Both the position numbers and the translations under genes were made by a program. Positions 8,560 through 57,621 of a stretch of DNA of 64,000 bases are shown piece by piece. The stretch lies in the IMG/VR virus record IMGVR_UViG_3300045988_183652, positions 1-64,000 of that record. One strand, 5' to 3'. This DNA is from a virus. Each line of letters opens with the position of its first letter. Positions within the stretch are counted from its first letter, which is position 1. The notes under the pieces are model-generated. The model was not told the origin of the DNA, did not search any database, and worked only from the letters and a program-made list of their open reading frames with translations.

Positions 8560-9015
8560 TTAGCCCTCAAATCCCAATGCTTTCATCACCGCTATTGCAG
8601 CGATAATTGGGATAATATACATAAGAAGTTTTGATGGGCTTGAACTTACATCAGCTTCTGAAAAGACTTTGCCGTTATCGTAGTAGAGAGTAATTTTCAA
8701 AGGCGGCATACTATTTGAAGTCACAACCGTTTTTGTGTGCAAGCCATCAAGCTCATATTCGTATGTGGCTACATAATTTCTTGCACCAGAGCTCTTTTCG
8801 TGATAACGACATTTTACCTGTGTTGCAGAAAGCATATGCCCGCTTTCTTTTGCCTTCGCTATTTTTTTCTCGCCTCTCGAAAAAATGATTCCTTTTTTGT
8901 ATAAAACGATTTCAATAGCAAAAACAACGATAGCAGTAAAAACTCCTATCCAGACAGCAGGGTCATACGCCAGCAACTGTTCCCACGCTTCTTTGAGTCC
9001 AATTTGATTGTTCAT
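8560..9015 (-). CDS. small membrane protein
   Basis: 151-aa ORF with an N-proximal TM helix; in operon. Confidence 0.45.
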   Translation of the reverse strand: MNNQIGLKEAWEQLLAYDPAVWIGVFTAIVVFAIEIVLYKKGIIFSRGEKKIAKAKESGHMLSATQVKCRYHEKSSGARNYVATYEYELDGLHTKTVVTSNSMPPLKITLYYDNGKVFSEADVSSSPSKLLMYIIPIIAAIAVMKALGFEG

Positions 9016-12242: not shown

Positions 12243-12327
12243 GGAGAGGTGGCCGAGCGGTTGAAGGCACCGGTCTTGAAAACCGGCGATGCGAAAGCAT
12301 CCGTGGGTTCGAATCCCACTCTCTCCG
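12243..12327 (+). tRNA. tRNA-Ser (anticodon TGA), CCA encoded (12328-12330)
   Basis: Cloverleaf with long variable arm (GGCGATGCGAAAGCATCC), anticodon loop cTTGAAa, T-arm GTGGGTTCGAATCCCAC. Confidence 0.85.
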
Positions 12328-12343
12328 CCAAAAGTAAAAAATA

Positions 12344-12477
12344 AGTACGGACGGTATAACCGGAATTAACGCCTGTGGAGATGCATGGTCATCGTGGAAG
12401 CAGGAATACTCTGTTAGCTGGTCATTCATGTGAGAGATGATGTCAGCACTTTTAGGGAACTGAATATGCCTGTGTCG
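12344..12477 (+). ncRNA. conserved ~135-nt array-leader / putative scaffold RNA element, copy A
   Basis: AGTACGGACGGTATAACCGGAATTAACGCCTGTGGAGATGCATGG...GGAATACTCTGTT..GCTGG..GTGAGAG...GGGAACTGAATA, shared at ~85% with copies at 43010, 44159, 45545 and more divergently 12711. Starts immediately 3' of tRNA-Ser. Confidence 0.5.
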
Positions 12478-12635
12478 GGTGTATGAAACCCTGAAAAAGC
12501 AGTGGTGTATACCATCAACGCAGTCCCATTAGAGTGCCGGAGAGGTATATAAAGCCCCGAAATAGCAGGGTTGTATACCATGTTGACTACGGGAATCACA
12601 GTATACAGGGCCTTAAAACAATAGGGTTATACACC
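12478..12635 (+). CRISPR. CRISPR-like mini-array A (3 degenerate 36-nt repeats, spacers 30 and 21 nt)
   Basis: Repeats at 12478-12513, 12544-12579 and 12601-12635, consensus GGTATAyAnnnCCCnGAAAnAnCAGGGTTGTATACC. Each repeat is an imperfect hairpin (GGTATACA...TGTATACC). Confidence 0.45.
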
Positions 12636-12685: not shown

Positions 12686-12704
12686 GTGTGCAATGATTGC
12701 ATAC
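12686..12704. promoter_or_regulatory. palindrome GTGTGCAATgATTGCAtAC upstream of leader copy B
   Basis: A perfect version, GTGTGCAATGATTGCACAC, sits at 42971-42989, ~20 nt upstream of leader copy C. Confidence 0.35.
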
Positions 12705-12710
12705 TTAAAA

Positions 12711-12850
12711 AGTACGGATGGTATAACCGGAATTAACGCCTGTGGAGACGAACTCCGTCGCTAAAGCAGGAACTTGCCATGAGCTGAATTCTGCGTGAGA
12801 GGCGGTGCAACGCCGAGGTGGGAGTACCTTGGGGGAACATTAGCAAGCGC
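12711..12850 (+). ncRNA. conserved array-leader element, divergent solo copy B (no array)
   Basis: AGTACGGATGGTATAACCGGAATTAACGCCTGTGGAGACGAACTCCGTCGC...GTGAGAGGCGGTGCAACGCC...GGGGGAAC. It has the same architecture as the other copies but different internal hairpins. Confidence 0.4.
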
Positions 12851-21022: not shown

Positions 21023-22888
21023 TTATGCCACCTTGCTGATGACTTGTGCTGCGTTGGAACGAATTTCGTTCTGTTCAACGGGGTCGTTCGTGCATTTCGA
21101 GATGAGGCACGTGTCAATATACTTTTCAAGATTTGCCAGATAGCGGTCATCACACTGCACGCAGCACACGAGGGATTCGAGCTCGCAGATGGTGCAAGAA
21201 CCCTCAGTGATTTCCTTGTCTGCACAGTAGCTGCGAATCTGCTCGTACACATCGTAGAGCGCGTACAATGTTCTGTCGTCGCGGCTCCAGCCGGTGTTGT
21301 ACTTGATGCGCTCCAGCATGGCTTTCTTCTCGATTTCCGTACTGTCGAAAATCATACGGCAGCGACGGAGAACCGACTGGTCAATGGGGCGGCAGGAAGC
21401 ATATCCGACGTTATCTGTGAATACCACAACGGCGTCCTTCTGGCGATAGGTAAATCCACCATCTACCAGAGGAATCATAGCTCCCGGCAAATCGTACTGG
21501 TTCAGCGCGACCATAACACCGGAATCCTTGATTCGGCTGACCTCCTGAATCTCGCAGATGTATCCGCGAGAAACGGCCTTCACAAAAGCGGATTCAACCA
21601 CCTTCACGGGGGAAGTGCAGCCGGCACGTGCAACCAACAGCTCGGAATACTTTGCAAAGCACTCCTCGGAGGTAATGCCCGTGCCATCTTCTCCTGTCAT
21701 GTTGTTCCACGCAGATTCGGGGTCGAAGGAAATCTCCTCAAAGGAGGGGAGTTCTCCTCGTACCGCATCCACAGGATTGCAGGGAACGAACTCGGAAATC
21801 AAGTCCTTTGCCAACATATCAGTATGACAGGTCAGCTCCAAACGGGGGGTGTGCAGGATGCACGCCAACACCTTCGTACCGGTAGACTTGCCGTAACCGG
21901 TGATACCGCGCCACAGGAAGTTGCGGAACGGAACGCGCATATTAGACGTTGCGACGATTTTATCTGCGATTTCGATTACCTCCGGCTGGACCTTGAAGTC
22001 GTCGTCAAAGGTGGGAATCAGCAGTTCTTCGTCTTGCGTCCACGTATGTGTGTTTGTCCATGCAGCATATCTGAGCTTGGCATCCTTCACGGTCATGCTC
22101 TTTTCAGACGAGCCGGCGTTTGAGGCCATGGTGCCACCGATAATGGTCGGGGAGCCAACGATGACGGTGCCGTTAAAGGCTCCGCTGTTTACCTTCTGCC
22201 GGGTCAGAATGTTCATATTGCCGTTCTGGATATTGAGAGGGATTTTTCCGTCTTCACAACCGTAGTAGAACATATCACTGAATGTGTAGAGAAAGTCTCT
22301 CGCATCAGGAATCTCATCCATATGGTTGCCCCAGTCGGCGGGGTACTTGGTGCTCAGGTCAAGGATGTCCGTCTGTACCTGCTTGAGCTCCACATTGTTT
22401 GCGACAACAGCCAGTTCAGGTGCGCCGTAATACGTTGCGAGGGTGAACGGGGTCATCGCAAGGAAAGCACCGCTCAGGTCGAGAGTGTCCGACTCCGAGC
22501 CAATAGACGGGGTTCCCGCCCACTGTCCGGAAGGTGCCGCTGACGCAGCCGCCAGCTTACCTACTGCCGGCGCATTCGTTTGAATGACCGTCTTGTAGGT
22601 GAAAAGATACGTCCTCGATTCCGTGGCGTCTCGATATTCCGCGCTCCACAGGTTATCAGAAACCTGCAAAAGAGCGTAGTCATCGACAAAATTGGGAATT
22701 CCCAGATACGCCAAAAGAGCTCTGGTCGCATAGTTGTGAAGGGTAGAATACCCCTTTGCAGAGGGGCGCTTGGGAGCACTCCATTTGGACACCGTACTTG
22801 TGTTTCTATTGGGAAGCGAGTTCAGCCCGTACGGAAGGGTACTGATATCGAACCCTTTCTTCCCTCGGAAGAGTACACAGTTTGCCAT
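21023..22888 (-). CDS. AAA+ ATPase (AAA_5 / MoxR-CobS-like)
   Basis: Walker A GITGYGKSTGTK; sensor region CRPIDQSVLRRC; 621 aa; directly upstream of the vWA gene in the same operon. Confidence 0.6.
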   Translation of the reverse strand: MANCVLFRGKKGFDISTLPYGLNSLPNRNTSTVSKWSAPKRPSAKGYSTLHNYATRALLAYLGIPNFVDDYALLQVSDNLWSAEYRDATESRTYLFTYKTVIQTNAPAVGKLAAASAAPSGQWAGTPSIGSESDTLDLSGAFLAMTPFTLATYYGAPELAVVANNVELKQVQTDILDLSTKYPADWGNHMDEIPDARDFLYTFSDMFYYGCEDGKIPLNIQNGNMNILTRQKVNSGAFNGTVIVGSPTIIGGTMASNAGSSEKSMTVKDAKLRYAAWTNTHTWTQDEELLIPTFDDDFKVQPEVIEIADKIVATSNMRVPFRNFLWRGITGYGKSTGTKVLACILHTPRLELTCHTDMLAKDLISEFVPCNPVDAVRGELPSFEEISFDPESAWNNMTGEDGTGITSEECFAKYSELLVARAGCTSPVKVVESAFVKAVSRGYICEIQEVSRIKDSGVMVALNQYDLPGAMIPLVDGGFTYRQKDAVVVFTDNVGYASCRPIDQSVLRRCRMIFDSTEIEKKAMLERIKYNTGWSRDDRTLYALYDVYEQIRSYCADKEITEGSCTICELESLVCCVQCDDRYLANLEKYIDTCLISKCTNDPVEQNEIRSNAAQVISKVA

Positions 22889-22959
22889 GATGTTTTCTCC
22901 TTTCTCCCAGCCTGTGATAAGGACTTACGGGAAACCAAAATAAAATGTATATATAGAAA

Positions 22960-23095
22960 AAGACAATCACTGCCCGAAAAGGGAAGTGATTGTCTGAATT
23001 TGTGATGTGACTTGAAAAACGGAGATAAAACTCCTTATAAAAATATCTTCGTAATTATACTATTATACTACCACGTTTCGCTATTTTGTCAACAG
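22960..23095 (-). promoter_or_regulatory. promoter + leader-hairpin cassette M1 (family-1)
   Basis: Minus strand: TTGACA-N16-TAGTATAATAGTATAAT, then GGAGTTTTATCTCC hairpin, then the hairpin GACAATCACTTCCC-ttttc-GGGCAGTGATTGTC + U-rich tract before the RBS. Homologous cassettes are M2-M6. Confidence 0.55.
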
Positions 23096-23107
23096 CAGCA
23101 ACGTAAA

Positions 23108-23140
23108 AAAAGAAGCTCCCGAAGGAGCTTCTTTTGAAAT
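23108..23140 (-). terminator. terminator of operon 2
   Basis: GAAGCTCC-cgaa-GGAGCTTC hairpin with T7 on minus strand. Confidence 0.6.
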
Positions 23141-28661: not shown

Positions 28662-28889
28662 TTTATTCTCCTTTCTCTAAATCTGCTTGTAAGGCCCAAG
28701 TGTGATAGACAGGTTGTAGATATAATTACCACAACGCACACATTCGTCGTTCTTTCCCCACAAGCCGCTTGCTTTCATACCGCGCACGCTGCCTGTATAA
28801 TGGATAGACGGGTGTGTATCGCACTCGTGCTGGGTAAGCTCCTTTTGTTTCATGCGTTTTCTCCTTTCGTTTTTATTTGTTCTGAATAT

Positions 28890-29030
28890 ATAAAAAGACA
28901 GTCGTTCCCAAATGAGAACAACTGTCTTGAATATGATGATGTGACTGAAAACGGAGATAAATCTCCTTATAAAAATATCTTCGTAATTATACTACTATAC
29001 TACCACAATTCTTTATAATGTCAACGGAAA
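28890..29030 (-). promoter_or_regulatory. promoter + leader-hairpin cassette M2
   Basis: Minus strand: TTGACATTATAAAGAATTGTGGTAGTATAGTAGTATAATTACG; GGAGATTTATCTCC; AAGACAGTTGTTCTC-atttg-GGAACGACTGTCTT + UUUUUAUAUAU. Confidence 0.55.
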
Positions 29031-29039
29031 CGGTACAAA

Positions 29040-29075
29040 AAAAAGAAGCCCCCGAAAGAGCTTCTTTTTAAGTTA
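29040..29075. terminator. bidirectional terminator
   Basis: GAAGCCCCC-gaaa-GAGCTTC hairpin flanked by A8/T5. Confidence 0.55.
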
Positions 29076-32822: not shown

Positions 32823-32884
32823 ATTTTTCTCCTTTCTCCCAGCCTGTGATAAGGTCTTACGGGAACAAAAATGTAGTGAATATA

Positions 32885-33025
32885 TAAAAAGACAGTCGCT
32901 CTCAAAAGAGAACAACTGTCTTGAATGTGATGATGTGACTGAAAACGGAGACAAAGCTCCTTATAAAAATATCTTCGTAATTATACTACTATACTACCAC
33001 ATTTCCTTATAATGTCAACGGTTTC
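32885..33025 (-). promoter_or_regulatory. promoter + leader-hairpin cassette M3
   Basis: TTGACA...TAGTATAGTAGTATAATTACG; GGAGCTTTGTCTCC; AAGACAGTTGTTCTC-ttttg-AGAGCGACTGTCTT + U-tract. Confidence 0.55.
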
Positions 33026-33036
33026 GACGCAAAAGA

Positions 33037-33068
33037 AAAGAGCCGCATAGCGGCTCTTTTTTTTAGGC
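33037..33068. terminator. bidirectional terminator
   Basis: AGAGCCGC-ata-GCGGCTCT + T8. Confidence 0.6.
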
Positions 33069-35919: not shown

Positions 35920-36058
35920 ATAAAAAGACAGCTATCCCTGTTTTGGGATAACTGTCTTGAATACTTGGTGTGACTGGAAGCGGAGATAAGTCTCCTTATA
36001 AAAATATCTTCGTAATTATACTATTATACTACCACAATTATTTATAATGTCAACAATA
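35920..36058 (-). promoter_or_regulatory. promoter + leader-hairpin cassette M4
   Basis: TTGACATTATAAATAATTGTGGTAGTATAATAGTATAATTACG; GGAGACTTATCTCC; AAGACAGTTATCCC-aaaac-AGGGATAGCTGTCTT + U-tract. Confidence 0.55.
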
Positions 36059-36062
36059 GCAG

Positions 36063-36095
36063 AGAAAAAAGAGGCGGCTTTCGCCTGCCTCTTTT
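36063..36095. terminator. bidirectional terminator
   Basis: AGAGGCGG-ctttcgcc-TGCCTCT + T7. Confidence 0.55.
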
Positions 36096-40620: not shown

Positions 40621-40649
40621 TTGACATTTTTATATGTTCGTGTTAGTAT
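40621..40649 (+). promoter_or_regulatory. family-2 promoter driving the long leader + tRNA cluster
   Basis: TTGACA-tttttatatgttcgtgt-TAGTAT. Confidence 0.5.
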
Positions 40650-41144
40650 AACAGCGTGGACAGGGCAAGAAAGGCTCGTTCGAAGGGCTTGTACCTAAAA
40701 TGACAATATTCTTGCGATTGTAAGAATAAGCGCCTAAGTTGCCCGTCCCGTTTTCTTCTTTCTTTATTTACACTCATAAGCACAATAAAGTCAGCTCCCT
40801 GAGGGAAGTGTGCGGGAGCTGCTTCGACTTTCGCGTTGTTCTCCATGCGGGGAGGTTCTGGCGGTTCGAGTCCGCACGGCGCGCCTTCTGTTTTCGCTGC
40901 TTCTATCTTCGCCTCCGTCTTTTTTAACGAGCAGCGGACACGGAAACATCTCTCAATATGATAGCGTAGCATAACTGGTAATGCCGTACCTCTCTCACAG
41001 GTAACGATATGTTGGTTCAACTCCAGCCGCTATTGCCAGCCGGCGTTCTACCCACCCCGCCGACATCAACTCTCTTCGGCGCTGGCGGCCTCCGTGCAGA
41101 CGGGATTACACGTGATAAGCGGAGGCTGCCAGCACCACCAAAAT

Positions 41145-41217
41145 GCTGGTGTAGCTCAGTAGGCAGAGCGGCGCATTCGTAACGCGCAGGTCGTGGGTTC
41201 GACCCCCACCGTCAGCT
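41145..41217 (+). tRNA. tRNA-Thr (anticodon CGT), CCA encoded
   Basis: 73-nt cloverleaf GCTGGTG/TAGCTCAGTAGGCAGAGC/anticodon loop tTCGTAa/GTGGGTTCGACCCCCAC; A31:C39 mismatch. Confidence 0.75.
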
Positions 41218-41302
41218 CCATTCCATACTCATTCTCCTTCAAGTGAAGCCCCCGTGTAACAGGTCTTTTGAAAAGTGCTTTCAGCCTCGTTGTGCGGGGG
41301 CT

Positions 41303-41375
41303 TCACGACTATGCTGATGTAGCTCAGTTGGCAGAGCGGCGGATTTGTAAACCGCAGGTCGGGGGTTCAAGGCCC
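41303..41375 (+). tRNA. tRNA-Thr (anticodon TGT), CCA encoded
   Basis: GCTGATGTAGCTCAGTTGGCAGAGC...anticodon loop tTTGTAa...GGGGGTTCAAGGCCCCC. Confidence 0.75.
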
Positions 41376-41423
41376 CCCATCAGCTCCATTAAAACCATGT
41401 GCTTTTGTGGTGTTTTTATATGC

Positions 41424-41497
41424 GCGGATGTCGTCTAATTTGGTGAGACACCAGCCTTCCAAGCTGGTCATTGCGGGTTCGAGTCCCGTCGTCCGCT
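41424..41497 (+). tRNA. tRNA-Gly (anticodon TCC), CCA encoded
   Basis: GCGGATG..anticodon arm CCAGC-cTTCCaa-GCTGG..GCGGGTTCGAGTCCCGT. Confidence 0.75.
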
Positions 41498-41500
41498 CCA

Positions 41501-41532
41501 AGGACACCGTAAAGTGTGTCCTTTTTTCTTTA
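41501..41532 (+). terminator. terminator after tRNA cluster
   Basis: AGGACAC-cgtaaagtgt-GTCCT + T6. Confidence 0.6.
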
Positions 41533-41889: not shown

Positions 41890-42948
41890 ATGCCAACTAC
41901 ATTTCAAGCGTTTAAGTATCGCATTTACCCGACTGATGAGCAGGTCGAAATCATTGAAAAGACATTCAAGTGCTGCCGGTTTGTGTGGAACCATTTCCTT
42001 GAGCGAACCTCCAAAATCTATGACCGTCGGCAGGAAAAGATGACGACCTTCGACTGTATGAAGGTTCTCACGGAGATGCGGGAGCGCTGGCCTTGGCTTG
42101 CGGACTGCGGCTGTACGGCAGAGAGATATGCCATCATTGATTTGTTTGAGGCGCGAAAAGCGTTCTTCCGCCGCATTAAAGCGGGGGAGAAGCCCGGTTA
42201 TCCCAAATTTAAGGGCGCGTCCCATCCGACACAGAGTTTTACGACCGCTGGTACTATCTATGTGACGGACGATTACATTCAGGTTCCGTTTGGAGGACAG
42301 TATCAGAAAATCAACAAGCTCAGGCGAGGGACGGGGCGCCCCATCGAAGGGTCTCCCCGCGAGGTCACTATTTCTCGGTCTGCTACCGGAAAATACTGGG
42401 CATCTGTCTGCTGTAAAGTAGAGCGAGACACGCTGCCTATTGTGGACGGCGAGGTGGGAATCAGTCTCGGACTGAAGGAGTTGGCTATTGACAGCAACGG
42501 CGTTCACTATGAGAACCCGAAGCATCTGAGCAAGTCTGCAAAGCGGCTGGCCCGTGAGCAGCGGCGTCTATCCCGCAAGAAGAAGGGCTCTGTCAACTAC
42601 GAGAAGCAGCGGCGCAAGGTAGCCGGCGTCCATGAGCATATTGCCAATCAGCGCAATGACTACCGGCATAAAATCAGCCGTGAACTTGTCAACGCAAACC
42701 AGCTTATTGCCGTTGAGAAGGTGGCCGTTAAGCCCTTAGTTGAGGGCAATGAGCAGGCTAAAAGCATCCTCGATGCCGGCTGGTCTGAACTTACCGGTAT
42801 GATAAAGTATAAGGCGGACTGGGCTGGACGCACTCTGGTGGACGTAGATACCGCCACCGTAGCACCGGAAGCCAAGCATGATGAGGCACTGGCACAGGTC
42901 GTGCTGTCCGAAGGTCAGCGCAAGGCATCCGAGCAGAATCCTGCCTAA
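41890..42948 (+). CDS. TnpB-like protein, nuclease-dead and C-terminally truncated (TldR-like candidate)
   Basis: Start at ATG 41890 (MPTTFQAFKYRIYPTDEQ, classic TnpB/OrfB N-terminus; GGAG RBS). RuvC-I motif GxDxG reads GISLG (Asp->Ser). The RuvC-II Glu is retained (IAVEKV). The protein stops just after the YKADWAGR motif, with no zinc finger or RuvC-III. There is no tnpA nearby. Confidence 0.7.
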   Translation: MPTTFQAFKYRIYPTDEQVEIIEKTFKCCRFVWNHFLERTSKIYDRRQEKMTTFDCMKVLTEMRERWPWLADCGCTAERYAIIDLFEARKAFFRRIKAGEKPGYPKFKGASHPTQSFTTAGTIYVTDDYIQVPFGGQYQKINKLRRGTGRPIEGSPREVTISRSATGKYWASVCCKVERDTLPIVDGEVGISLGLKELAIDSNGVHYENPKHLSKSAKRLAREQRRLSRKKKGSVNYEKQRRKVAGVHEHIANQRNDYRHKISRELVNANQLIAVEKVAVKPLVEGNEQAKSILDAGWSELTGMIKYKADWAGRTLVDVDTATVAPEAKHDEALAQVVLSEGQRKASEQNPA

Positions 42949-42970: not shown

Positions 42971-42989
42971 GTGTGCAATGATTGCACAC
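42971..42989. promoter_or_regulatory. perfect palindrome GTGTGCAATgATTGCACAC
   Basis: 9+1+9 inverted repeat 22 nt after the TnpB-like stop and 20 nt before leader copy C; a homolog sits at 12686. Confidence 0.4.
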
Positions 42990-43009
42990 ATTGCCAAGGA
43001 AATAAAAAC

Positions 43010-43143
43010 GAGTACGGACGGTATAGCCGGAATTAACGCCTGTGGAGATGCATGGTCGTCGTGGAAGCAGGAATACTCTGTTGGCTGGTTTGTTATGTGA
43101 GAGGTGGCGACCAGCACTTTCGGGGAACTGAATACCTGTGCTT
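43010..43143 (+). ncRNA. conserved array-leader / putative guide-scaffold element, copy C
   Basis: GAGTACGGACGGTATAGCCGGAATTAACGCCTGTGGAGATGCATGGTCGTCGTGGAAGCAGGAATACTCTGTTGGCTGG...GTGAGAGGTGGCGACCAGCACTTTCGGGGAACTGAATACC. Confidence 0.5.
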
Positions 43144-43177
43144 GGTATACACCACCCGGAAATAACAGGGTTTTACC
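43144..43177 (+). CRISPR. single CRISPR-like repeat (array C, degenerate 3' end)
   Basis: GGTATACACCACCCGGAAATAACAGGGTTTTACC directly abutting leader copy C. Confidence 0.35.
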
Positions 43178-43277
43178 ATTCGTAATTATAGTTCTTCCCT
43201 CCGCTGTGTGGAGCGTTTTGTCGAAATGACAAAACATTCCTCTTAAATTCTTAAAAACAAGAAAGGAAATAAAGAAT

Positions 43278-43853
43278 ATGGAACCTTCTATCAACAGAAC
43301 TCTCACCGTCAGCGTCGTCAGCTATGGCGTCGTATCTGTCGTCAATGGAGTCATCAACGTTGACAACCAGAACCCCATCGAGTTTCCCGCCGTGCTGGAC
43401 GAGGCATCCGCTGCCAAACTGCTGAAGAGCAGATACGGCGGCAAGCTGTTCCCCGTGGACGCAAACATTGTCGTGTCTTCCATCCGGCATGAGAAATGGA
43501 AGTTCTCTATGGACCTGAGCCAGTTCGTTGCTACCGCTGCCCGCAGCCGCGTGGATGGAACCGAGTCCGGTGCTGATGATACCCCCGCAGAGGACGTTCC
43601 CGCCACTGAGCCGGCTGTTCCTGCGCCTGAGGGGACACCCGTTGCTTCTTCTATTCCCATGCCTCTGACGTCTGAGCCTGAGGAGAGTTTTACACCTACG
43701 CCCCCCGAAGTGCCTGCTTCAGCCGGCGGCTTCGCCCCTGAGTCTCCCACTGCTGCGCCTGCCGCTCCCGCAAAGGAAGTTCCCTACGGCGGCAACTTCA
43801 ATTTCCCCTCCGAATTTGGCGGAGACTTCGGTTCCGGCTTCTTTGGCGGATAA
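43278..43853 (+). CDS. hypothetical protein with Pro/Ala/Glu-rich C-terminal half
   Basis: AAAGGAAATAAAG RBS; 191 aa. Confidence 0.45.
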   Translation: MEPSINRTLTVSVVSYGVVSVVNGVINVDNQNPIEFPAVLDEASAAKLLKSRYGGKLFPVDANIVVSSIRHEKWKFSMDLSQFVATAARSRVDGTESGADDTPAEDVPATEPAVPAPEGTPVASSIPMPLTSEPEESFTPTPPEVPASAGGFAPESPTAAPAAPAKEVPYGGNFNFPSEFGGDFGSGFFGG

Positions 43854-43860
43854 TGGGCCG

Positions 43861-44028
43861 ATGGACATTGTGAACGTTGGCCGGGGGTGTCTTGATTGCA
43901 TCAACAAGGAGAATCCTACGACCAAAGAGCCGTGCAAGAGCTGTTCGCGCTGGAGCAGGTGGGAGCCGGATGATAAGTCCAAAGAAAAGGTGACGGTACA
44001 GGACGCAAGGAAAAGGGCGAAGAAATAA
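43861..44028 (+). CDS. small CxxC...CxxC protein
   Basis: MDIVNVGRGCLDCINKENPTTKEPCKSCSRW; start chosen downstream of the track start; weak RBS. Confidence 0.3.
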   Translation: MDIVNVGRGCLDCINKENPTTKEPCKSCSRWSRWEPDDKSKEKVTVQDARKRAKK

Positions 44029-44140: not shown

Positions 44141-44158
44141 ACTGAAAATCTCAAAAAC

Positions 44159-44290
44159 GAGTACGGACGGTATAACCGGAATTAACGCCTGTGGAGATGC
44201 ATGGTCGTCGTGGAAGCAGGAATACTCTGTTGGCTGGTCTTCACGTGAGAGGTGATACCGGCACTTTCGGGGAATTGAATACCTATGCTG
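44159..44290 (+). ncRNA. conserved array-leader element, copy D
   Basis: Near-identical to copy C. Confidence 0.5.
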
Positions 44291-44457
44291 GGTATACACC
44301 ACCCGGAAATAACAGGGTTGTATACCACTCGACCGCCCCACTAACCCCGTGGGGGAGGTATACACCCCCAGAAATAACAGGGTTGTATACCATTGCAAAT
44401 GAGCTCTTTTGCGGTCTTGAGGGTATATACCACCCGGAAATAACACCGTTGCATACC
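44291..44457 (+). CRISPR. CRISPR-like array D (3 repeats of 35-36 nt, 2 spacers of 30 nt)
   Basis: Repeats at 44291-44326, 44357-44391 and 44422-44457. Spacers are actcgaccgccccactaaccccgtggggga and attgcaaatgagctcttttgcggtcttgag. Confidence 0.5.
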
Positions 44458-44494
44458 ATATAAATAAGATAGTCTACAGGGAGGAGGGAGCTTA

Positions 44495-45016
44495 ATGGCC
44501 TCGAAAAAGATATATAGTTCCCCTGAGCTCTATGAAGATAAGCTGGTGCGCGTGATGGCGCGTCTTGGTATTGAAGTTGGTGACTACAACTACGACTGGA
44601 GTCGTCAGGAATGTTGGGTCGAGTTCAGATACAAGGGGGAATATTATCGCTTTTCTCACAGTGTAAAGAACGCTCAAGAGCACGGCATCTCCCTGCAGTA
44701 CGGCTCCGATGCCTTTGCACAGGTCGTGCTCTCTTTGGAAGACCTCGCCCGTATGGTCGAACGAGGCATCTACGACCTGTCTACATGGGTGGCCGGCATG
44801 AAAGCCCTGCCGAAGCGCTCCGAGTCATTAGATGCCTGCTTTATTGCTCTCGGTTTCGTAGAGCCGCCAACATCCAAGGAAGAAATCACACTCCACTATC
44901 GGCGGCTGGCAAAGGTATATCACCCTGATGCCGGCGGCGATAGCTGCTCATTTGATGCGCTATCTAACAACTACACAAAATGCATGGAGATGTTCGAGGA
45001 GGCTGCCGAGAAGTAA
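44495..45016 (+). CDS. J-domain (DnaJ-like) protein
   Basis: C-terminal ITLHYRRLAKVYHPDAGGD (HPD motif); GGAGGGAG RBS. Confidence 0.5.
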   Translation: MASKKIYSSPELYEDKLVRVMARLGIEVGDYNYDWSRQECWVEFRYKGEYYRFSHSVKNAQEHGISLQYGSDAFAQVVLSLEDLARMVERGIYDLSTWVAGMKALPKRSESLDACFIALGFVEPPTSKEEITLHYRRLAKVYHPDAGGDSCSFDALSNNYTKCMEMFEEAAEK

Positions 45017-45522
45017 TGTATATGTCTCAGAAAGAGTTCAATGCAATGATGAAGAAAAACCCCCGCCTCCGTGTTCACGGTGCAAACAACACACGCGAAC
45101 ATCGTTCCAAGGCGAACAAGGCGGCAAAATATAGAAACGTAAAGGTCTACGAGTACGCCGATGGGCTGTCCTTTTTCGGTAAGCCCCGCAATAGTGGTGA
45201 ACTCCCTATCGCTGTCTATGACAGTAAGAAGGAGTACCACCGCTGGAAAGAGCTTCAGATTCTGGAGCGCGGCGGACATATCCACGACCTTCGCCGGCAG
45301 GTGCCTTTGACCATCATTACCGAGTTCGAGTATCGTGGTCAGAAGGTCTCCGGTATTACTTACAAAGCCGACGCCGTCTATGTGCGCGACGGCAAGTGTG
45401 TGGTAGAGGACGTGAAGCCCTTCGATACCACAACGCAGAAGTATCGAACTACAAAGGATTTCAACCTCAAGTGGAAGCTGCTCAAGGCTGAATATCCTGA
45501 GTGGAGCTTCGAAATTTTTTAG
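45016..45522 (+). CDS. hypothetical protein
   Basis: Start at TAATG overlap (MYMSQKEFNAMMKKNP...); GAGGAGG upstream. Confidence 0.45.
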   Translation: MYMSQKEFNAMMKKNPRLRVHGANNTREHRSKANKAAKYRNVKVYEYADGLSFFGKPRNSGELPIAVYDSKKEYHRWKELQILERGGHIHDLRRQVPLTIITEFEYRGQKVSGITYKADAVYVRDGKCVVEDVKPFDTTTQKYRTTKDFNLKWKLLKAEYPEWSFEIF

Positions 45523-45544
45523 CGTAACAGGTTTCAAGAACAAC

Positions 45545-45678
45545 GAGTACGGACGGTATAACCGGAATTAACGCCTGTGGAGATGCATTGTCGTCGCGGA
45601 AGCAGGAATACTCTGTTGGCTGGTAGTCACGTGAGAGGTGGCACCAGCGCTTTGGGGAACTGAATATATCCTGTGCCG
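45545..45678 (+). ncRNA. conserved array-leader element, copy E
   Basis: GAGTACGGACGGTATAACCGGAATTAACGCCTGTGGAGATGCATTGTCGTCGCGGAAGCAGGAATACTCTGTTGGCTGG... Confidence 0.5.
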
Positions 45679-46118
45679 GGTGTATGAGGGCCTGAAATGA
45701 CAGGGGGTATACCCTAACAGCGCAGTAACGTTTAGTGAAGTACGGGTGTATAGAGTCCTGAAACAGCAGGGTTGTATACCATGGAAATGTTCGGCTGACG
45801 GTGCAACACAAGACCACGTGTATACACCACCCAGAAATAACAGGGTTGTATACCCCTTGTTATATGAAAACACCATGGAAAACAGGTATACACCACCCCG
45901 GAATAACAGGGTTGTATACCATGGAGGATGGGCGCTTCACCTTGCAGGTGGGCGTATAAAGCCCTGAAATATCAGGGTTGTATACCTGACTCGTGATGAT
46001 ATTCTCACCGCAGTACGGTATATAGAACCCCGAAATAGCATGGTTGTATACCCTCTCGACTGCAATGAAAAAGCACTACAAAGGTATATAGAGCCCTGAA
46101 ATAACAGTGTTGTATACC
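45679..46118 (+). CRISPR. CRISPR-like array E (7 degenerate 33-37-nt repeats, 6 spacers of 30-38 nt)
   Basis: Repeats start at ~45679, 45745, 45818, 45885, 45954, 46017 and 46083. All end in GTTGTATACC (or GGGTATACCC) and begin with GGTrTAyA. Spacers are unique. Confidence 0.5.
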
Positions 46119-46238
46119 CGCAATACGCCACAGTCCATGTAATACAGGAGGCGGTATTTTCCTCGCTTACTTCGACCTTGTGCAGTAAGAGATTGCACCG
46201 GTCGCTTGCTTGCTCCGCAAATTTGTTCGCTCGAAGAA

Positions 46239-46318
46239 CTTGACAAAATATCGAAATATAGTAGTATAGAATTATAAGGAAGGACAGTCTAACACAGACT
46301 GTCCTTCCGCTTTTTTAT
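46239..46318 (+). promoter_or_regulatory. promoter + leader-hairpin cassette M6 (plus-strand version)
   Basis: TTGACA-aaatatcgaaatatag-TAGTATAGAATTATAA, then GGAAGGACAGTCT-aacac-AGACTGTCCTTCC + GCTTTTTT, an intrinsic-terminator-like hairpin a few nt after the predicted TSS. Confidence 0.55.
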
Positions 46319-46341: not shown

Positions 46342-47139
46342 TTGGAAAGCACAAGCAAAAAACAAGTAAAATGGGGGATTTTCAAGACTGCACTCTTTAC
46401 GTTCCTGTTCGTCGCCGTATCCGCTTTCTACTTTCTCTCCGCCAACGTGACACTCGCACAGGCCGAAGAGCACTCAAACCACGAGGTGCCTCCTGCTGGA
46501 GCAGCGGTTGCCACCCAGATGGACGACACCAAGCTGTCGGAAAAAGCGCAGCAAGATGTTCTGGAACTGAAGGAAGGAGTTCTCGACCCTCTTTCCGACA
46601 TCACAGAAGCAGAGAACTCTGAAGATGACCCCGACGCCGTGGAGGAAGTACAGGAAGTCGTTCCGACAGTCTGTTCCTACTGCGGCTCTGAGAACCATAG
46701 TTCCTCAATCTGTGCAAAGAGGTCTATCGCCAATGGTGCCTATGGGCGCTGGGCGATTCCGTCTGTTGGCTGTAATGTAGCGGCCTACTCGTGTAACTGG
46801 GATGCAGACCAATCCTATATTCAGGAAATTACTGACAGCTCCGACAGTGCAGCTTTTTTGACTTGCGGCGGCGTTGGTGTTCTTGCAGACCACAATAACC
46901 AAGGTTTCTTGGGACTTTCCAATGTTTCTGTTGGCACGAAAGCCTACATGGACTTTGGTGATGGCGCAACTTACTACGAGTGCTATCAGGTTGAATACGG
47001 ACACAATACCGGCGAAAAGATGCTCGATGGAAATGGAAACATAATGAGCTACAGTAACTATTCTTCCGGCACTGTGATTTGTTACACCTGCCTTGACCAC
47101 TGGACCAACATTTACATCACTTACTGGACGCCGGTATAA
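46342..47139 (+). CDS. secreted/membrane-anchored CCHC zinc-knuckle protein, paralog 1
   Basis: TTG start with GAAAGGGGA RBS. N-terminal signal/TM segment, acidic linker, CSYCGSENHSSSIC (CX2CX4HX4C), then a conserved C-terminal domain (ADHNNQGF...YxCxxxxYGHN...YTCxDHW). Confidence 0.55.
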   Translation: MESTSKKQVKWGIFKTALFTFLFVAVSAFYFLSANVTLAQAEEHSNHEVPPAGAAVATQMDDTKLSEKAQQDVLELKEGVLDPLSDITEAENSEDDPDAVEEVQEVVPTVCSYCGSENHSSSICAKRSIANGAYGRWAIPSVGCNVAAYSCNWDADQSYIQEITDSSDSAAFLTCGGVGVLADHNNQGFLGLSNVSVGTKAYMDFGDGATYYECYQVEYGHNTGEKMLDGNGNIMSYSNYSSGTVICYTCLDHWTNIYITYWTPV

Positions 47140-47180
47140 GTGCCAGACACCCACTCTCTACTCTAAGAAAGGACGAAACC

Positions 47181-47981
47181 ATGAAAACGAAATTCAAAAT
47201 CCCTCGGTGGGCACTCTTCACCGTTATCATTCTGGCCTTTATCGGTGGTCTCTTTGCCATCTCCATGCTGCCTGCTTTCGCATCACGTGAAAGCTCTCCG
47301 CCTTTGGCAGTAGCAGAAGCCGCGCAGAACGAGGAAAAGGACGCAAATTCTGATGCTCAGACTCCCGAAGCAGACAAGACGACAGATGAACAGGGAAGTG
47401 CTGAAGCCCCCGCAGAGGCCGCGTCTCAGGCAGACGACGCCGTCGTTGTCGAAGAGACTCCCGCCGAAGCGCCTGTTCAGGAAACCCCGACTACCTGTTC
47501 CTACTGCGGCAGTGCAGAACACACCAGAGACTACTGCGCCGTTCGTGCCGTTGACAATGGTGCCGTTGGCCGGCTCCGGATTCCCTCTGTCGGTGTTGAC
47601 GTGGCTGTCTACGACGTTACTTGGTACTCTCTGCAGCATACCACCGAGAGTGACAACTACACGCAGGCCGTTACAGATGCATGGGACAGCGCAGCACAAA
47701 TCGTCTATCTCGGCCAGACCGTTATTGGCGACCATAATAATCAGGGCTTCTCCACCATCAACAACTGCTCCGAAGGCACCTACGCTTACATCGACATGGG
47801 CGACTCTGTCCTGACCTATGTTTGCACCGGCATCCAGCATGGTCGTAACCCCGGTGGCTATCTCACCGGTGCCGATGGCGATAGCATCTATACCTCTTAC
47901 TTCAATCCCAACGGTCTGACGCTGTATACCTGTCTCGACCACAACTTCAATGTTGCCCTCGTGACATTCCAGCCTGCTTAA
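47181..47981 (+). CDS. secreted CCHC zinc-knuckle protein, paralog 2
   Basis: Signal/TM anchor, A/E-rich linker, CSYCGSAEHTRDYC, GDHNNQGF...YTCLDHN. Confidence 0.55.
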   Translation: MKTKFKIPRWALFTVIILAFIGGLFAISMLPAFASRESSPPLAVAEAAQNEEKDANSDAQTPEADKTTDEQGSAEAPAEAASQADDAVVVEETPAEAPVQETPTTCSYCGSAEHTRDYCAVRAVDNGAVGRLRIPSVGVDVAVYDVTWYSLQHTTESDNYTQAVTDAWDSAAQIVYLGQTVIGDHNNQGFSTINNCSEGTYAYIDMGDSVLTYVCTGIQHGRNPGGYLTGADGDSIYTSYFNPNGLTLYTCLDHNFNVALVTFQPA

Positions 47982-47997
47982 AGGGGGTGCAGCTTTA

Positions 47998-48771
47998 ATG
48001 AAAACAAAGAAGATTTCCCGCCGCGCTGTTACGCTGGCTGCCTTTTTGCTGGTAAGCGCATCATCTTTACATATGGCTTGTGCAGAGGCTGCGGTGCCGT
48101 TCGATTACTTTACTGATGACCTCTCTGTGTCCGCTGCCGCCGTTGCTGAGGAAGATAAATACCTGCCTCCTGAGTGGTTCACAAAAGAAAATGCTGTAAG
48201 TGAAGTAGACTCAGACACGCCTCCGGTGGAGACTCCTACCCCTGCGGGCGAATCCTCTGTGGCGACCCCCGTGCCTGAGCCCGCACCGGAAACCGCAGCA
48301 GCCTGCAGCTATTGCGGCAGCGCAGGGCACTCGCAGAATAGGTGTGCCGTTTACGCTGTCGAACAGCGAGGTGCCGTTGGGCGTTGGTCTATCCCTTCTA
48401 TTGGAATAGATGTCGCTTGCTTCACCTATGTGCTTGGAAGCGATTCCTTCGAGTACGGACAGGCAATTTGTGACGCTGCCGATAGTGCCGGCTACAGTGC
48501 GTATGGGAGCCAGTATCTCATTGCAGACCACAACTATCAGGGCTTTTCTGCCATAGCCAACTGCGCGGTCGGTGCGGTGGGATATATGGATTACGGAAAC
48601 AGTCGAACAGAATATGTTTGTACTGGGGTGGAGTATGGGCACAATGAAGGCACGGAACTGACTGATAATGACGGAAACGATGTTGCGTACAACAACAGTG
48701 GAGGAATTACCCTTTACACCTGTTACAACGGCTGGCAAAACGTCGTCATAGCGTATTTTACTCCGGTTTAA
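47998..48771 (+). CDS. secreted CCHC zinc-knuckle protein, paralog 3
   Basis: Signal peptide, CSYCGSAGHSQNRC, ADHNYQGF...YTCYNGW. Confidence 0.55.
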   Translation: MKTKKISRRAVTLAAFLLVSASSLHMACAEAAVPFDYFTDDLSVSAAAVAEEDKYLPPEWFTKENAVSEVDSDTPPVETPTPAGESSVATPVPEPAPETAAACSYCGSAGHSQNRCAVYAVEQRGAVGRWSIPSIGIDVACFTYVLGSDSFEYGQAICDAADSAGYSAYGSQYLIADHNYQGFSAIANCAVGAVGYMDYGNSRTEYVCTGVEYGHNEGTELTDNDGNDVAYNNSGGITLYTCYNGWQNVVIAYFTPV

Positions 48772-57331: not shown

Positions 57332-57389
57332 AAATGTTTTGTTTTTTGTGAGGTTGAGATTTGGTTATTGATGTAGTTTTTTTATATTA

Positions 57390-57527
57390 AAAAAGACAGC
57401 TATCCTTCAAAAAGGATAACTGTCTTTGATAAATGATGGTGTCTTGAAACGGAGATAAATCTCCTTATAAAAATATCTTCGTAATTATACTACTATACTA
57501 CCACGTTTCATTATTTTGTCAACAGGA
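57390..57527 (-). promoter_or_regulatory. promoter + leader-hairpin cassette M5
   Basis: TTGACAAAATAATGAAACGTGGTAGTATAGTAGTATAATTACG; GGAGATTTATCTCC; AAGACAGTTATCC-tttttgaa-GGATAGCTGTCTT + UUUUUAAUAUA. Confidence 0.55.
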
Positions 57528-57621
57528 CAAGGCGAGAAAAAATGAGGTTTTTCCCTGTGGTTATTGCACGTGTGAAATTCTTCTGATATACTTTATAGCA
57601 CGATAGAGAGGGGGCTTTTGT

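Follow-up and report, generated by a model that had tools for sequence, protein, structure and literature searches.

A TnpB-derived, probably nuclease-dead protein and neighbouring scaffold-headed guide arrays on a mobile element of human-gut bacteria

We analysed a 64,000-nucleotide stretch of DNA (hereafter the window), positions 1 to 64,000 of the IMG/VR virus record IMGVR_UViG_3300045988_183652. Its plus strand encodes, at positions 41890-42948, an intact open reading frame (ORF) of 352 amino acids (aa) derived from TnpB, whose product we name dTnpB. An omegaRNA-like scaffold follows this gene, recurs elsewhere in the window and heads arrays of CRISPR-like repeats and spacers. We propose that dTnpB is probably a nuclease-dead effector which, with guides from the scaffold-headed arrays, binds and silences rival integrative elements.

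The dTnpB protein

An earlier note, made from the sequence alone, had identified the protein as a TnpB/OrfB homologue, and the searches bear this out. Pfam recovers HTH_OrfB_IS605 at residues 6-48 (E=1.6e-17) and OrfB_IS605 at residues 172-283 (E=3e-25), and a phmmer search of the Protein Data Bank (PDB) matches ISDra2 TnpB (E=1.9e-49, residues 6-322). The AlphaFold2 model, built with 117 homologues, has a mean predicted local distance difference test score (pLDDT) of 88.4 and a predicted template modelling score (pTM) of 0.81. Its top Foldseek match is again ISDra2 TnpB, chain 8exa_A (template modelling score, TM, 0.85/0.88; root mean square deviation 2.7 A). The Cas12f1-like TNB zinc-ribbon domain of Pfam is matched over the first 24 of 60 profile positions only, at 18 bits against a cut-off of 26.3. 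dTnpB has the domains and the fold of a TnpB/OrfB protein but neither an intact D-E-D triad nor the zinc finger (TNB domain). The ORF is preceded by GGACGGAG, in agreement with the description of the gene as intact and equipped with a good ribosome-binding site (RBS).

The RuvC-I motif GxDxG reads GISLG in dTnpB, and Ser192 aligns with D191 of ISDra2 TnpB (motif GVDVG); the Asp-to-Ser change described in the earlier note is upheld, the canonical Asp being absent from the alignment. The RuvC-II glutamate it had reported is kept as Glu276 in the motif IAVEKV. Its account of the C-terminus needs correction. The ORF was said to end right after KADWAGR, with both the zinc finger and RuvC-III missing; in fact 38 further residues follow, and in an alignment of 117 sequences the RuvC-III helix of full-length relatives (DRDENAAKNILxEGLRLL) has its counterpart in residues 329-349 (KHDEALAQVVLSEGQRKASEQ). 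Counting positions along the ISDra2 alignment, the catalytic D361 of ISDra2 is the second Asp of DRDENAA, and D331 of dTnpB occupies its column. The AlphaFold2 model predicts a helix at residues 331-349 (pLDDT ~85). The deletion comprises ~28 internal residues and takes out both CxxC pairs, so that all four cysteines are gone. The zinc finger is indeed missing, but it was lost by internal deletion and not by a C-terminal truncation, and the RuvC-III position still holds an Asp. With S192, E276 and D331 at the three RuvC positions, the triad of dTnpB reads S-E-D.

In Cas12c the RuvC site processes pre-crRNA. By analogy, the selected retention of E276 and D331 in dTnpB could reflect an RNA-processing role, or it could be structural. 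Judging by its active-site residues, dTnpB most likely no longer cleaves DNA; in TnpB, mutation of any single residue of the DED triad abolishes cleavage (bioRxiv 10.1101/2023.11.30.569447).

Two peptides encoded in other frames downstream of the stop codon were considered as zinc-finger remnants and rejected. "KVCNDC" corresponds to a DNA palindrome and "GINACGD" to the conserved omegaRNA core, and both also lie past the stop codon in full-length relatives.

Scaffold RNA

A conserved element ~60 nt past the stop codon, followed by repeats, had been reported at this locus, and we recovered it as an omegaRNA-like scaffold of ~135 nt with its array. The window contains five copies of the scaffold, all on the plus strand. 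Scaffold B (43009-43143) occupies the canonical omegaRNA position just 3' of the dTnpB gene, scaffolds C (44158-44290) and D (45544-45678) lie further downstream, and scaffold A (12337-12477) begins 6 nt past tRNA-Ser(tga) (12243-12330). The fifth, a divergent copy without the repeat, starts at 12699 within a segment (12686-12830) that opens with the palindrome GTGTGCAATGATTGCATAC. In the other four copies the scaffold is continuous with a 36-nt palindromic repeat of consensus GGTATACACCACCCGGAAATAACAGGGTTGTATACC.

The array repeat is homologous to the last (3') module of the omegaRNAs of related TnpB proteins, and the scaffold blocks GCCTGTGGAG, GAAGCAGGAAT and GTGAGAG are common to the omegaRNAs of full-length relatives (51-56% identity). 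RNAalifold, applied to 39 non-identical scaffold copies, gives a closing stem, three internal hairpins and a terminal hairpin formed by the repeat. One stem carries compensatory changes (TCAC/GTGA, GTCAG/CTGAC), the 39 copies being too similar for strong covariation statistics. The repeat alone folds as a hairpin of -14.3 kcal/mol. At gathering thresholds Rfam reports tRNAs only and no family for the scaffold. A near-perfect palindrome, GTGTGCAATGATTGCACAC, stands between the dTnpB stop codon and scaffold B (42971-42989) and recurs at 12686-12704, a possible operator or terminator. The scaffold core GGAATTAACGCCTGTGGAGA was tried as a search key and dropped for lack of specificity, since its hits included TnpB omegaRNA regions of Bacillus, Methanosarcinales and other groups.

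Fragments of the scaffold are scattered in related DNA. The related contig L107 (3318-3503) carries a hybrid made of the 5' half of the array scaffold and the 3' half of an omegaRNA of insertion sequence (IS) type, with the junction at GAAGCAGGAAT, a chimera that suggests recombination between array scaffold and IS omegaRNA genes. Orphan omegaRNA-like 5' halves (…CCGGAAT[CT]AACGCCTGTGGAGAC…GAAGCAGGAA…) were seen in L097 (1140-1250), L106 and L145, where they lie just upstream of the dTnpB gene in the clade with 87% identity to dTnpB.

Arrays and their turnover between strains

The four arrays of the window are likewise on the plus strand and consist of 36-nt repeats with a period of 66 nt and unique spacers. 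Array B (43144-43235) has one repeat, with a degenerate 3' end (43144-43179), followed by a guide-like flank and terminator-like hairpins (43199-43235); the same locus carries 2-5 repeats in other strains. Array C (44291-44457) has three repeats (44291-44326, 44357-44391 and 44422-44457) enclosing spacers C1 (44327-44356) and C2 (44392-44421). Array D (45679-46118) has seven, starting at 45679, 45745, 45819, 45885, 45951, 46017 and 46083, and a strong bidirectional terminator (46278-46308) lies downstream of it. Array A, with three repeats at 12478, 12544 and 12600, extends to 12635 and is hypervariable between strains. All arrays and the small genes between them are co-oriented. Single related contigs (120-170 kb) have as many as nine scaffold copies or more, spread over several loci.

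Past the last repeats (43180-43235, 44458-44497 and 46119-46150) the sequence leads into terminators in array B and, in array C, into the next gene's RBS and start codon (ATATAAATAAGATAGTCTACAGGGAGGAGGGAGCTTAATG). Any terminal "guide" would consequently match its own locus.

The tRNA-Ser gene is directly followed by an array in every strain examined for the tRNA, which suggests co-transcription and tRNA-type end processing of array A. This array is the most variable between strains, and in sister strains it carries both of the spacers against a Xis-like gene described below.

From 101 arrays we collected 127 distinct spacer-position sequences. Internal spacers have a modal length of 30 nt (49 of 84), with 67 of the 84 falling between 29 and 32 nt. 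Spacer content, including the first guide, differs at the same locus among strains whose flanks are 97-98% identical. In five strains (L139, L153, L101, L149 and L002) array B has the distal spacers CGTGAGGCACGAAAA and CCATATGACG... in common, while the scaffold-proximal spacers are unique to each strain and lie between perfect repeats. The distal repeats are degenerate, and some distal spacers are cut to 15-20 nt. This is a pattern of addition at the leader end and internal loss, with the scaffold in the position of the leader.

A Pfam scan of essentially all plausible ORFs of the window found no cas1, cas2 or cas4, no Y1 transposase (tnpA) and no Tn7 genes (tnsB, tnsC, tniQ). The dTnpB gene adjoins a cluster of tRNA genes (40960-41500) and lacks a tnpA companion, as the earlier note had stated. 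The locus resembles type V systems in that an effector of the TnpB/Cas12 family is followed by an array of regular repeats and unique spacers.

Spacer targets

The pooled spacers were compared by BLAST with the phage records of INPHARED, and a single record, MT835962.1, was matched by two spacers. This record is probably a chromosomal fragment, and a protein encoded in it led to chromosomal target contigs. The first spacer of the tRNA-Ser array of strain L136 matches at 30/30 positions over the RBS and start codon of a Xis-like HTH_17 gene (80 aa), which sits upstream of a tyrosine integrase gene. An array spacer of strain L098 matches at 29/30 positions near the 3' end of the same gene.

A metagenome scan with one spacer recurrent in many arrays yielded, besides ten copies within arrays, a single true target, contig L180, a small integrative element of 7 kb adjoining ychF. 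Its relatives L191-L196 have, one after another, HTH_3, an 88-aa gene, a 107-aa gene, a 340-aa Rep-like gene, FtsK/SpoIIIE, Tn916-Xis and a tyrosine integrase; some members of the 340-aa Rep-like family have an SF3-helicase domain. The ychF-linked element is hit by spacers of many arrays and strains.

On this element and the Xis-like gene we count 18 protospacer sites in all, of which 11 have at least 26 matching positions and three match at 30/30. The base 5' of the protospacer (position -1) is G in all 17 good matches, and position -2 is rarely A. Good matches with this G are also found for spacers that lie inside the arrays. Matches to foreign mobile elements with a protospacer-adjacent motif are a further property of type V systems found here. 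The protospacers of 16 of the 17 good matches lie on the coding strand of the element's operon. Guides of the same sense as the mRNA must pair with DNA, not with the transcript. In this orientation the end next to the transposon-adjacent motif (TAM) faces the promoter, the arrangement reported to be effective for TldR roadblocks in transcribed regions (Wiegand et al., 10.1101/2023.11.30.569447).

Other searches gave no targets. No spacer of the window matches within the window, and none of the spacers collected matches outside the arrays in ~1 Mb of related loci. PLSDB has no match to the spacers or to the region, protospacer scans of IMG/VR with four spacers recovered array copies only, and relatives of the targeted integrase were not found in IMG/VR.

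Further orphan scaffold 5' halves, at 9780-9870 of contig L166 and 2626-2701 of L164, lie just upstream of the targeted Xis-like gene.

Orthologues and selection

Exact or near orthologues of dTnpB are common in gut metagenome assemblies and IMG/VR contigs. By amino acid identity they fall into groups at 98-99% and ~87%, plus a recombinant at 78% (P0003). Deep divergence was rejected as the reading of the last, which is a recombined segment inside flanks otherwise 96-98% identical. GISLG, E276, the same zinc-finger deletion and the same tail are present in all orthologues found, and none of the strains recovered has a disrupted ORF. The order recG, tRNA cluster, dTnpB gene, arrays is the same throughout the related contigs found. 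The gene is single-copy and always at this recG-tRNA locus, which is not the distribution of a mobile IS.

Compared with the 87% clade, synonymous divergence (dS) is ~1.06-1.13 and nonsynonymous divergence (dN) ~0.083-0.089, giving dN/dS of 0.075-0.084; inside the 99% group dN/dS is 0.03-0.08 (Nei-Gojobori in both cases). The tail, codons 321-352, is constrained too, with a ratio of nonsynonymous to synonymous proportions (pN/pS) of 0.11-0.14. Purifying selection and conserved synteny together indicate that dTnpB is not a decaying IS. The view taken beforehand, of a domesticated, probably nuclease-dead RNA-guided DNA binder rather than an IS pseudogene, is strengthened by orthologues that share S192 and the deletion at a dN/dS of ~0.08: the same lesion recurs in the 99%, 87% and 78% orthologues, and the orthologous loci give no sign of a decaying IS.

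Among proteins in which GxDxG, zinc finger and DRD motif are all intact, the closest reach just 51-61% identity with dTnpB. These full-length relatives reside in phages and other mobile elements, with one omegaRNA each. A fragment with 67% identity (P0085) has the zinc-finger deletion in common with dTnpB and has lost both RuvC aspartates (GVCLG, PHG). We rejected it as a deep functional orthologue, since it is an N-terminally truncated remnant beside an HU gene and has no arrays. The shared deletion implies that the lineage without the zinc finger predates this element, in which alone it is demonstrably maintained.

Some strains also carry a 1.38-kb element that codes solely for a full-length TnpB, 51% identical to dTnpB, with an intact D-E-D triad, a zinc finger and its own omegaRNA. 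It occupies positions 2372-3752 of contig L101 (corresponding to window 40854-40861), the end of L002 (inside the gene at 43278-43853) and a third site in L133, between window positions 8563 and 9022. The insertion sites differ among strains, which indicates that an active relative coexists with the domesticated dTnpB. The insertion flanks (GGTTCTGG, GATTTTA) yield no clear TAM. A separate clade of 320-aa TnpB relatives (P0022 and P0026; 44-46% identical) lacks GxDxG (…VTIRRDDVDF…) and ends directly past the last RuvC strand, with neither zinc finger nor RuvC-III; on these features it may represent an independent inactivation.

The carrier element and neighbouring genes

Related contigs are classed as viral in IMG/VR, and the carrier has no match among named phages or in PLSDB. 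We treat it as a large, mostly uncharacterised phage- or plasmid-like element of human-gut bacteria. The window encodes a Topo III-like topoisomerase, an SSB-domain protein, a MobH/TraI_2-like HD protein, a VWA protein, PemK, YopX, a DUF1064 resolvase-like protein, a large serine recombinase, a RecD/Dda-like helicase, a RecE-like exonuclease and three sortase-like paralogues, together with many ORFs of no family.

Upstream of the dTnpB gene, the tRNA cluster comprises Glu-ctc, Thr-cgt, Thr-tgt and Gly-tcc on the plus strand, with a sigma-70-like promoter ahead of it (40621-40649) and a terminator-like hairpin after it (41500-41523). Four plus-strand genes lie between the arrays: a Pro-rich gene of no known family (43278-43853), a small gene (43816-44028), a gene with a weak J-domain match (44495-45016) and a DUF1064 gene of a phage resolvase-like family (45025-45522). 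They are tied to the array system by position only. Behind the array D terminator and a promoter, 46342-48771 encodes the three tandem paralogues (257-266 aa), two of which have weak sortase-domain matches.

A dispersed repeat of 110-190 nt occurs at 22870-23120, 28850-29060, 32860-33050, 35930-36070 and 57370-57560, and also at 40621-40649 and 46240-46267. On the minus strand it contains a near-consensus promoter (TTGACA-N17-TATAAT) and a conserved leader hairpin (GGAGATTTATCTCC), with a terminator hairpin before it, and it has the look of a promoter cassette that the element has put to use repeatedly. Similarity to part of this repeat is also seen in the flank that follows array B (TCGTAATTATAG...).

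Discussion

In the mechanism that we propose as the best supported and the most probable, the guide RNA would consist of the ~135-nt omegaRNA-like scaffold, ending in the 36-nt hairpin, and then the guide. Duplication of the module made of terminal hairpin and guide would have given rise to the CRISPR-like arrays, and the whole unit of scaffold and array would have been copied to several sites on the element. The RNAs would steer dTnpB to spacer-complementary DNA with a 5' G, in genes that serve small integrative elements for regulation, replication, transfer and excision, where bound dTnpB may form a roadblock to transcription or replication that silences the rival element. For internal spacers, one possibility is cleavage in the repeat loop, after which the 5' half-repeat of the scaffold would pair in trans with any 3' half-repeat; this is conceivable because the repeat is palindromic. 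On this reading dTnpB, and not another protein, would use the scaffold and array RNAs, and the outcome of its binding would be repression.

Several observations weigh against this proposal. All orthologues of dTnpB belong to one lineage in one element family. The residues Ser192, Glu276 and Asp331 might leave some catalytic activity. A search of the scaffold for an anti-repeat gave a duplex of -25 kcal/mol, no better than the -21.6 +/- 2.9 obtained with shuffled repeats, and with no anti-repeat in the scaffold the use of spacers past the first one lacks an explanation. Directly in front of the scaffolds, a consensus scan gave no convincing promoter. The decay of distal repeats and spacers (15-20 nt) leaves it possible that only the first guide of each array works. 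A TAM of one base is unusually weak for TnpB or Cas12. The window's own spacers have no full-length match, the best being 13 nt of C1, which together with a similar hairpin corresponds to the terminator after the 107-aa gene of the targeted element; the target evidence thus comes from sister strains of the same element.

Several of these points would be expected if dTnpB were a classic TldR, with a single guide that regulates a fixed gene of the host or of the element, and with working guides only next to the scaffold, the downstream repeats being inert fossils. The RuvC lesion, the loss of the zinc finger, the non-transposon context and the adjacent scaffold all fit such a protein, as do the degenerate distal repeats, the often shortened distal spacers (15-20 nt), the lack of an anti-repeat and the promoter-proximal position of one target, on the RBS and start codon of the Xis-like gene. 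We nevertheless think this explanation unlikely, because the first guide itself varies among strains with flanks 97-98% identical, good matches with the same G motif extend to internal spacers, and most targets lie inside genes of foreign integrative elements rather than at one conserved host promoter. Next in our ranking, and improbable, is that dTnpB is still a DNA or RNA nuclease, which would make the locus a miniature cleaving type V CRISPR or a TranC-like system. Glu276 and Asp331 stand in the RuvC-II and RuvC-III columns under purifying selection, and rearranged catalytic sites are known in TnpB and Fanzor. The RuvC-I Asp, however, is Ser in all orthologues and Cys in P0085, where the RuvC-III Asp is lost as well; the entire zinc-finger module is absent; and mutation of any DED residue is enough to abolish TnpB cleavage (bioRxiv 10.1101/2023.11.30.569447).

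The arrays might instead serve another effector, such as the polymorphic full-length TnpB IS or a Cas12 or TnpB of the host, with dTnpB a bystander remnant. Some strains have a full-length TnpB of 51% identity inserted close by, no tnpB-like gene adjoins four of the five scaffold copies of the window, and one chimeric scaffold joins an array scaffold to an IS omegaRNA. Yet the omegaRNA of the IS is distinct and lacks the repeat hairpin, and the IS is missing from the syntenic region in many array-bearing strains, whereas dTnpB is intact in every strain recovered, with a dN/dS of ~0.08, and scaffold B stands in the cognate 3' position; we regard a role for another effector as quite unlikely. 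Hardly credible is a decaying IS200/IS605 remnant whose repeats are functionless transposon-end hairpins, comparable to debris of palindrome-associated transposable elements (PATE-like). The palindromic repeat hairpin does resemble IS605 subterminal structures, and scaffold fragments are dispersed in related DNA. Against it stand the purifying selection on the dTnpB gene, the 30-nt spacers with their 66-nt period and the polar turnover, and it is already contradicted by 18 protospacer sites on foreign elements with a common flanking G and a strand bias.

The proposed binding and silencing of rival elements by dTnpB can be extended, tentatively and with considerable doubt, to a self-contained adaptive system without Cas1-Cas2. 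The scaffold would act as the leader, new G-adjacent 30-nt spacers would be inserted at the junction of scaffold and repeat, the effector would be the cleavage-dead protein of 352 aa, and the guides would be matured in part by tRNA-processing enzymes, as the tRNA-Ser-fused array suggests. The locus would then be a living intermediate in the birth of an array from an omegaRNA. To our knowledge, dTnpB would be the smallest CRISPR-type effector.

If dTnpB uses the arrays, it is a natural programmable and multiplexed DNA binder of 352 residues with a very relaxed flank requirement (a 5' G), of interest for compact tools for CRISPR interference and epigenome editing. In evolutionary terms, it would exhibit the formation of a CRISPR array by duplication of the 3' hairpin and guide of an omegaRNA that is still attached to its scaffold, a step so far only inferred comparatively. 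The strain-level data indicate that scaffold-fused arrays already turn over in a polar manner, and they pose the question of how new spacers could enter such arrays with no adaptation module close by. Ecologically, we propose a cleavage-free RNA-guided weapon in the conflict between mobile elements of the gut, used by a large element against small islands with Xis, Int, FtsK and Rep genes. Comparable conflicts are those of the CRISPR system of phage ICP1 with PLE islands and of the type IV systems of plasmids.

Comparison with known systems

The earlier note had likened dTnpB to TldR proteins and to Cas12k. The first comparison holds in part. Like the TldRs (Wiegand et al., bioRxiv 10.1101/2023.11.30.569447; Xiao et al., bioRxiv 10.64898/2026.09.22.753285), dTnpB is TnpB-sized, has a degraded RuvC and lacks the zinc finger; it is encoded on a mobile element outside a transposon, with an adjacent omegaRNA-like guide, a TAM-like flanking base and targets in a roadblock-compatible orientation. 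The predicted inactivation of RuvC, the non-transposon context, the conservation and the adjacent scaffold are all hallmarks of a TldR-type dead TnpB. What does not fit is the single fixed guide. Described TldRs have essentially one adjacent guide and repress a host promoter (fliC, oppA; bioRxiv 10.1101/2023.11.30.569447), whereas here at least five scaffold copies occur per 64 kb, four of them with repeat-spacer arrays, and the many guides vary among strains and have mostly intragenic targets in foreign integrative elements. The RuvC-III Asp position, in addition, is kept in dTnpB.

The analogy with Cas12k (type V-K CRISPR-associated transposons) fares worse. Common to both are a nuclease-dead type V effector, short arrays, a tracr-like scaffold and a location near tRNA genes. 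The model of dTnpB, however, reaches TM values of only 0.41-0.47 with Cas12k in Foldseek, the spacers target genes of rival elements and not attachment sites, and the window ORFs scanned with Pfam include no tnsB, tnsC or tniQ, that is, no Tn7-like genes to which dTnpB could be linked.

TranC systems (Jin et al., Cell 2025, as cited in PMC13565253; PDB 9jfo) are nuclease-active transposon-CRISPR intermediates whose RNA is split into tracrRNA and crRNA. They likewise place a TnpB-like protein between omegaRNA and CRISPR array, with a repeat homologous to the omegaRNA 3' end, and differ from dTnpB, which is probably inactive as a nuclease and whose scaffold and first repeat are still joined. With LaTranC, dTnpB has a weak match (phmmer, E=1e-11 over 80 residues). 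A survey of type V-U systems describes ~50 independent transitions from TnpB to Cas12, with arrays 3' of the gene, without cas1/2 and derived from duplicated omegaRNA segments (Altae-Tran et al. 2023, PMC10691335); some V-U branches are inactivated, such as V-U24 with a non-canonical RuvC-I. Compared by description, the portions of the survey considered here do not report strain-level polar turnover, multiple scaffold-headed arrays, a tRNA-fused array or targets.

Cas12m (V-M) and Cas12c (V-C) are also TnpB-derived effectors with a non-canonical RuvC and arrays without an adaptation module, located on mobile elements and carrying spacers against other mobile elements; they interfere by binding or silencing, as proposed for dTnpB (PMC10442227, PMC11013384). 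They differ from the present system in size (about 600 aa against 352), in having a short crRNA handle instead of an omegaRNA-type scaffold fused to the first repeat, and in the absence of many dispersed mini-arrays. phmmer finds no match between dTnpB and the Cas12m chains at E<=0.01, and Cas12m2 ranks 26 and below among the Foldseek matches of the model (TM 0.59-0.70, against 0.85 for ISDra2 TnpB). By sequence and fold dTnpB belongs to the TnpB clade and stands much nearer to ISDra2 TnpB than to any Cas12.

A literature search found no published account of this particular arrangement. We rate the system as a variant within the known kinds of TnpB-derived systems and not as a new category, the comparison with the V-U group being by description only. 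By analogy, its logic appears closer to cleavage-free immunity of the Cas12m or Cas12c type than to TldR.

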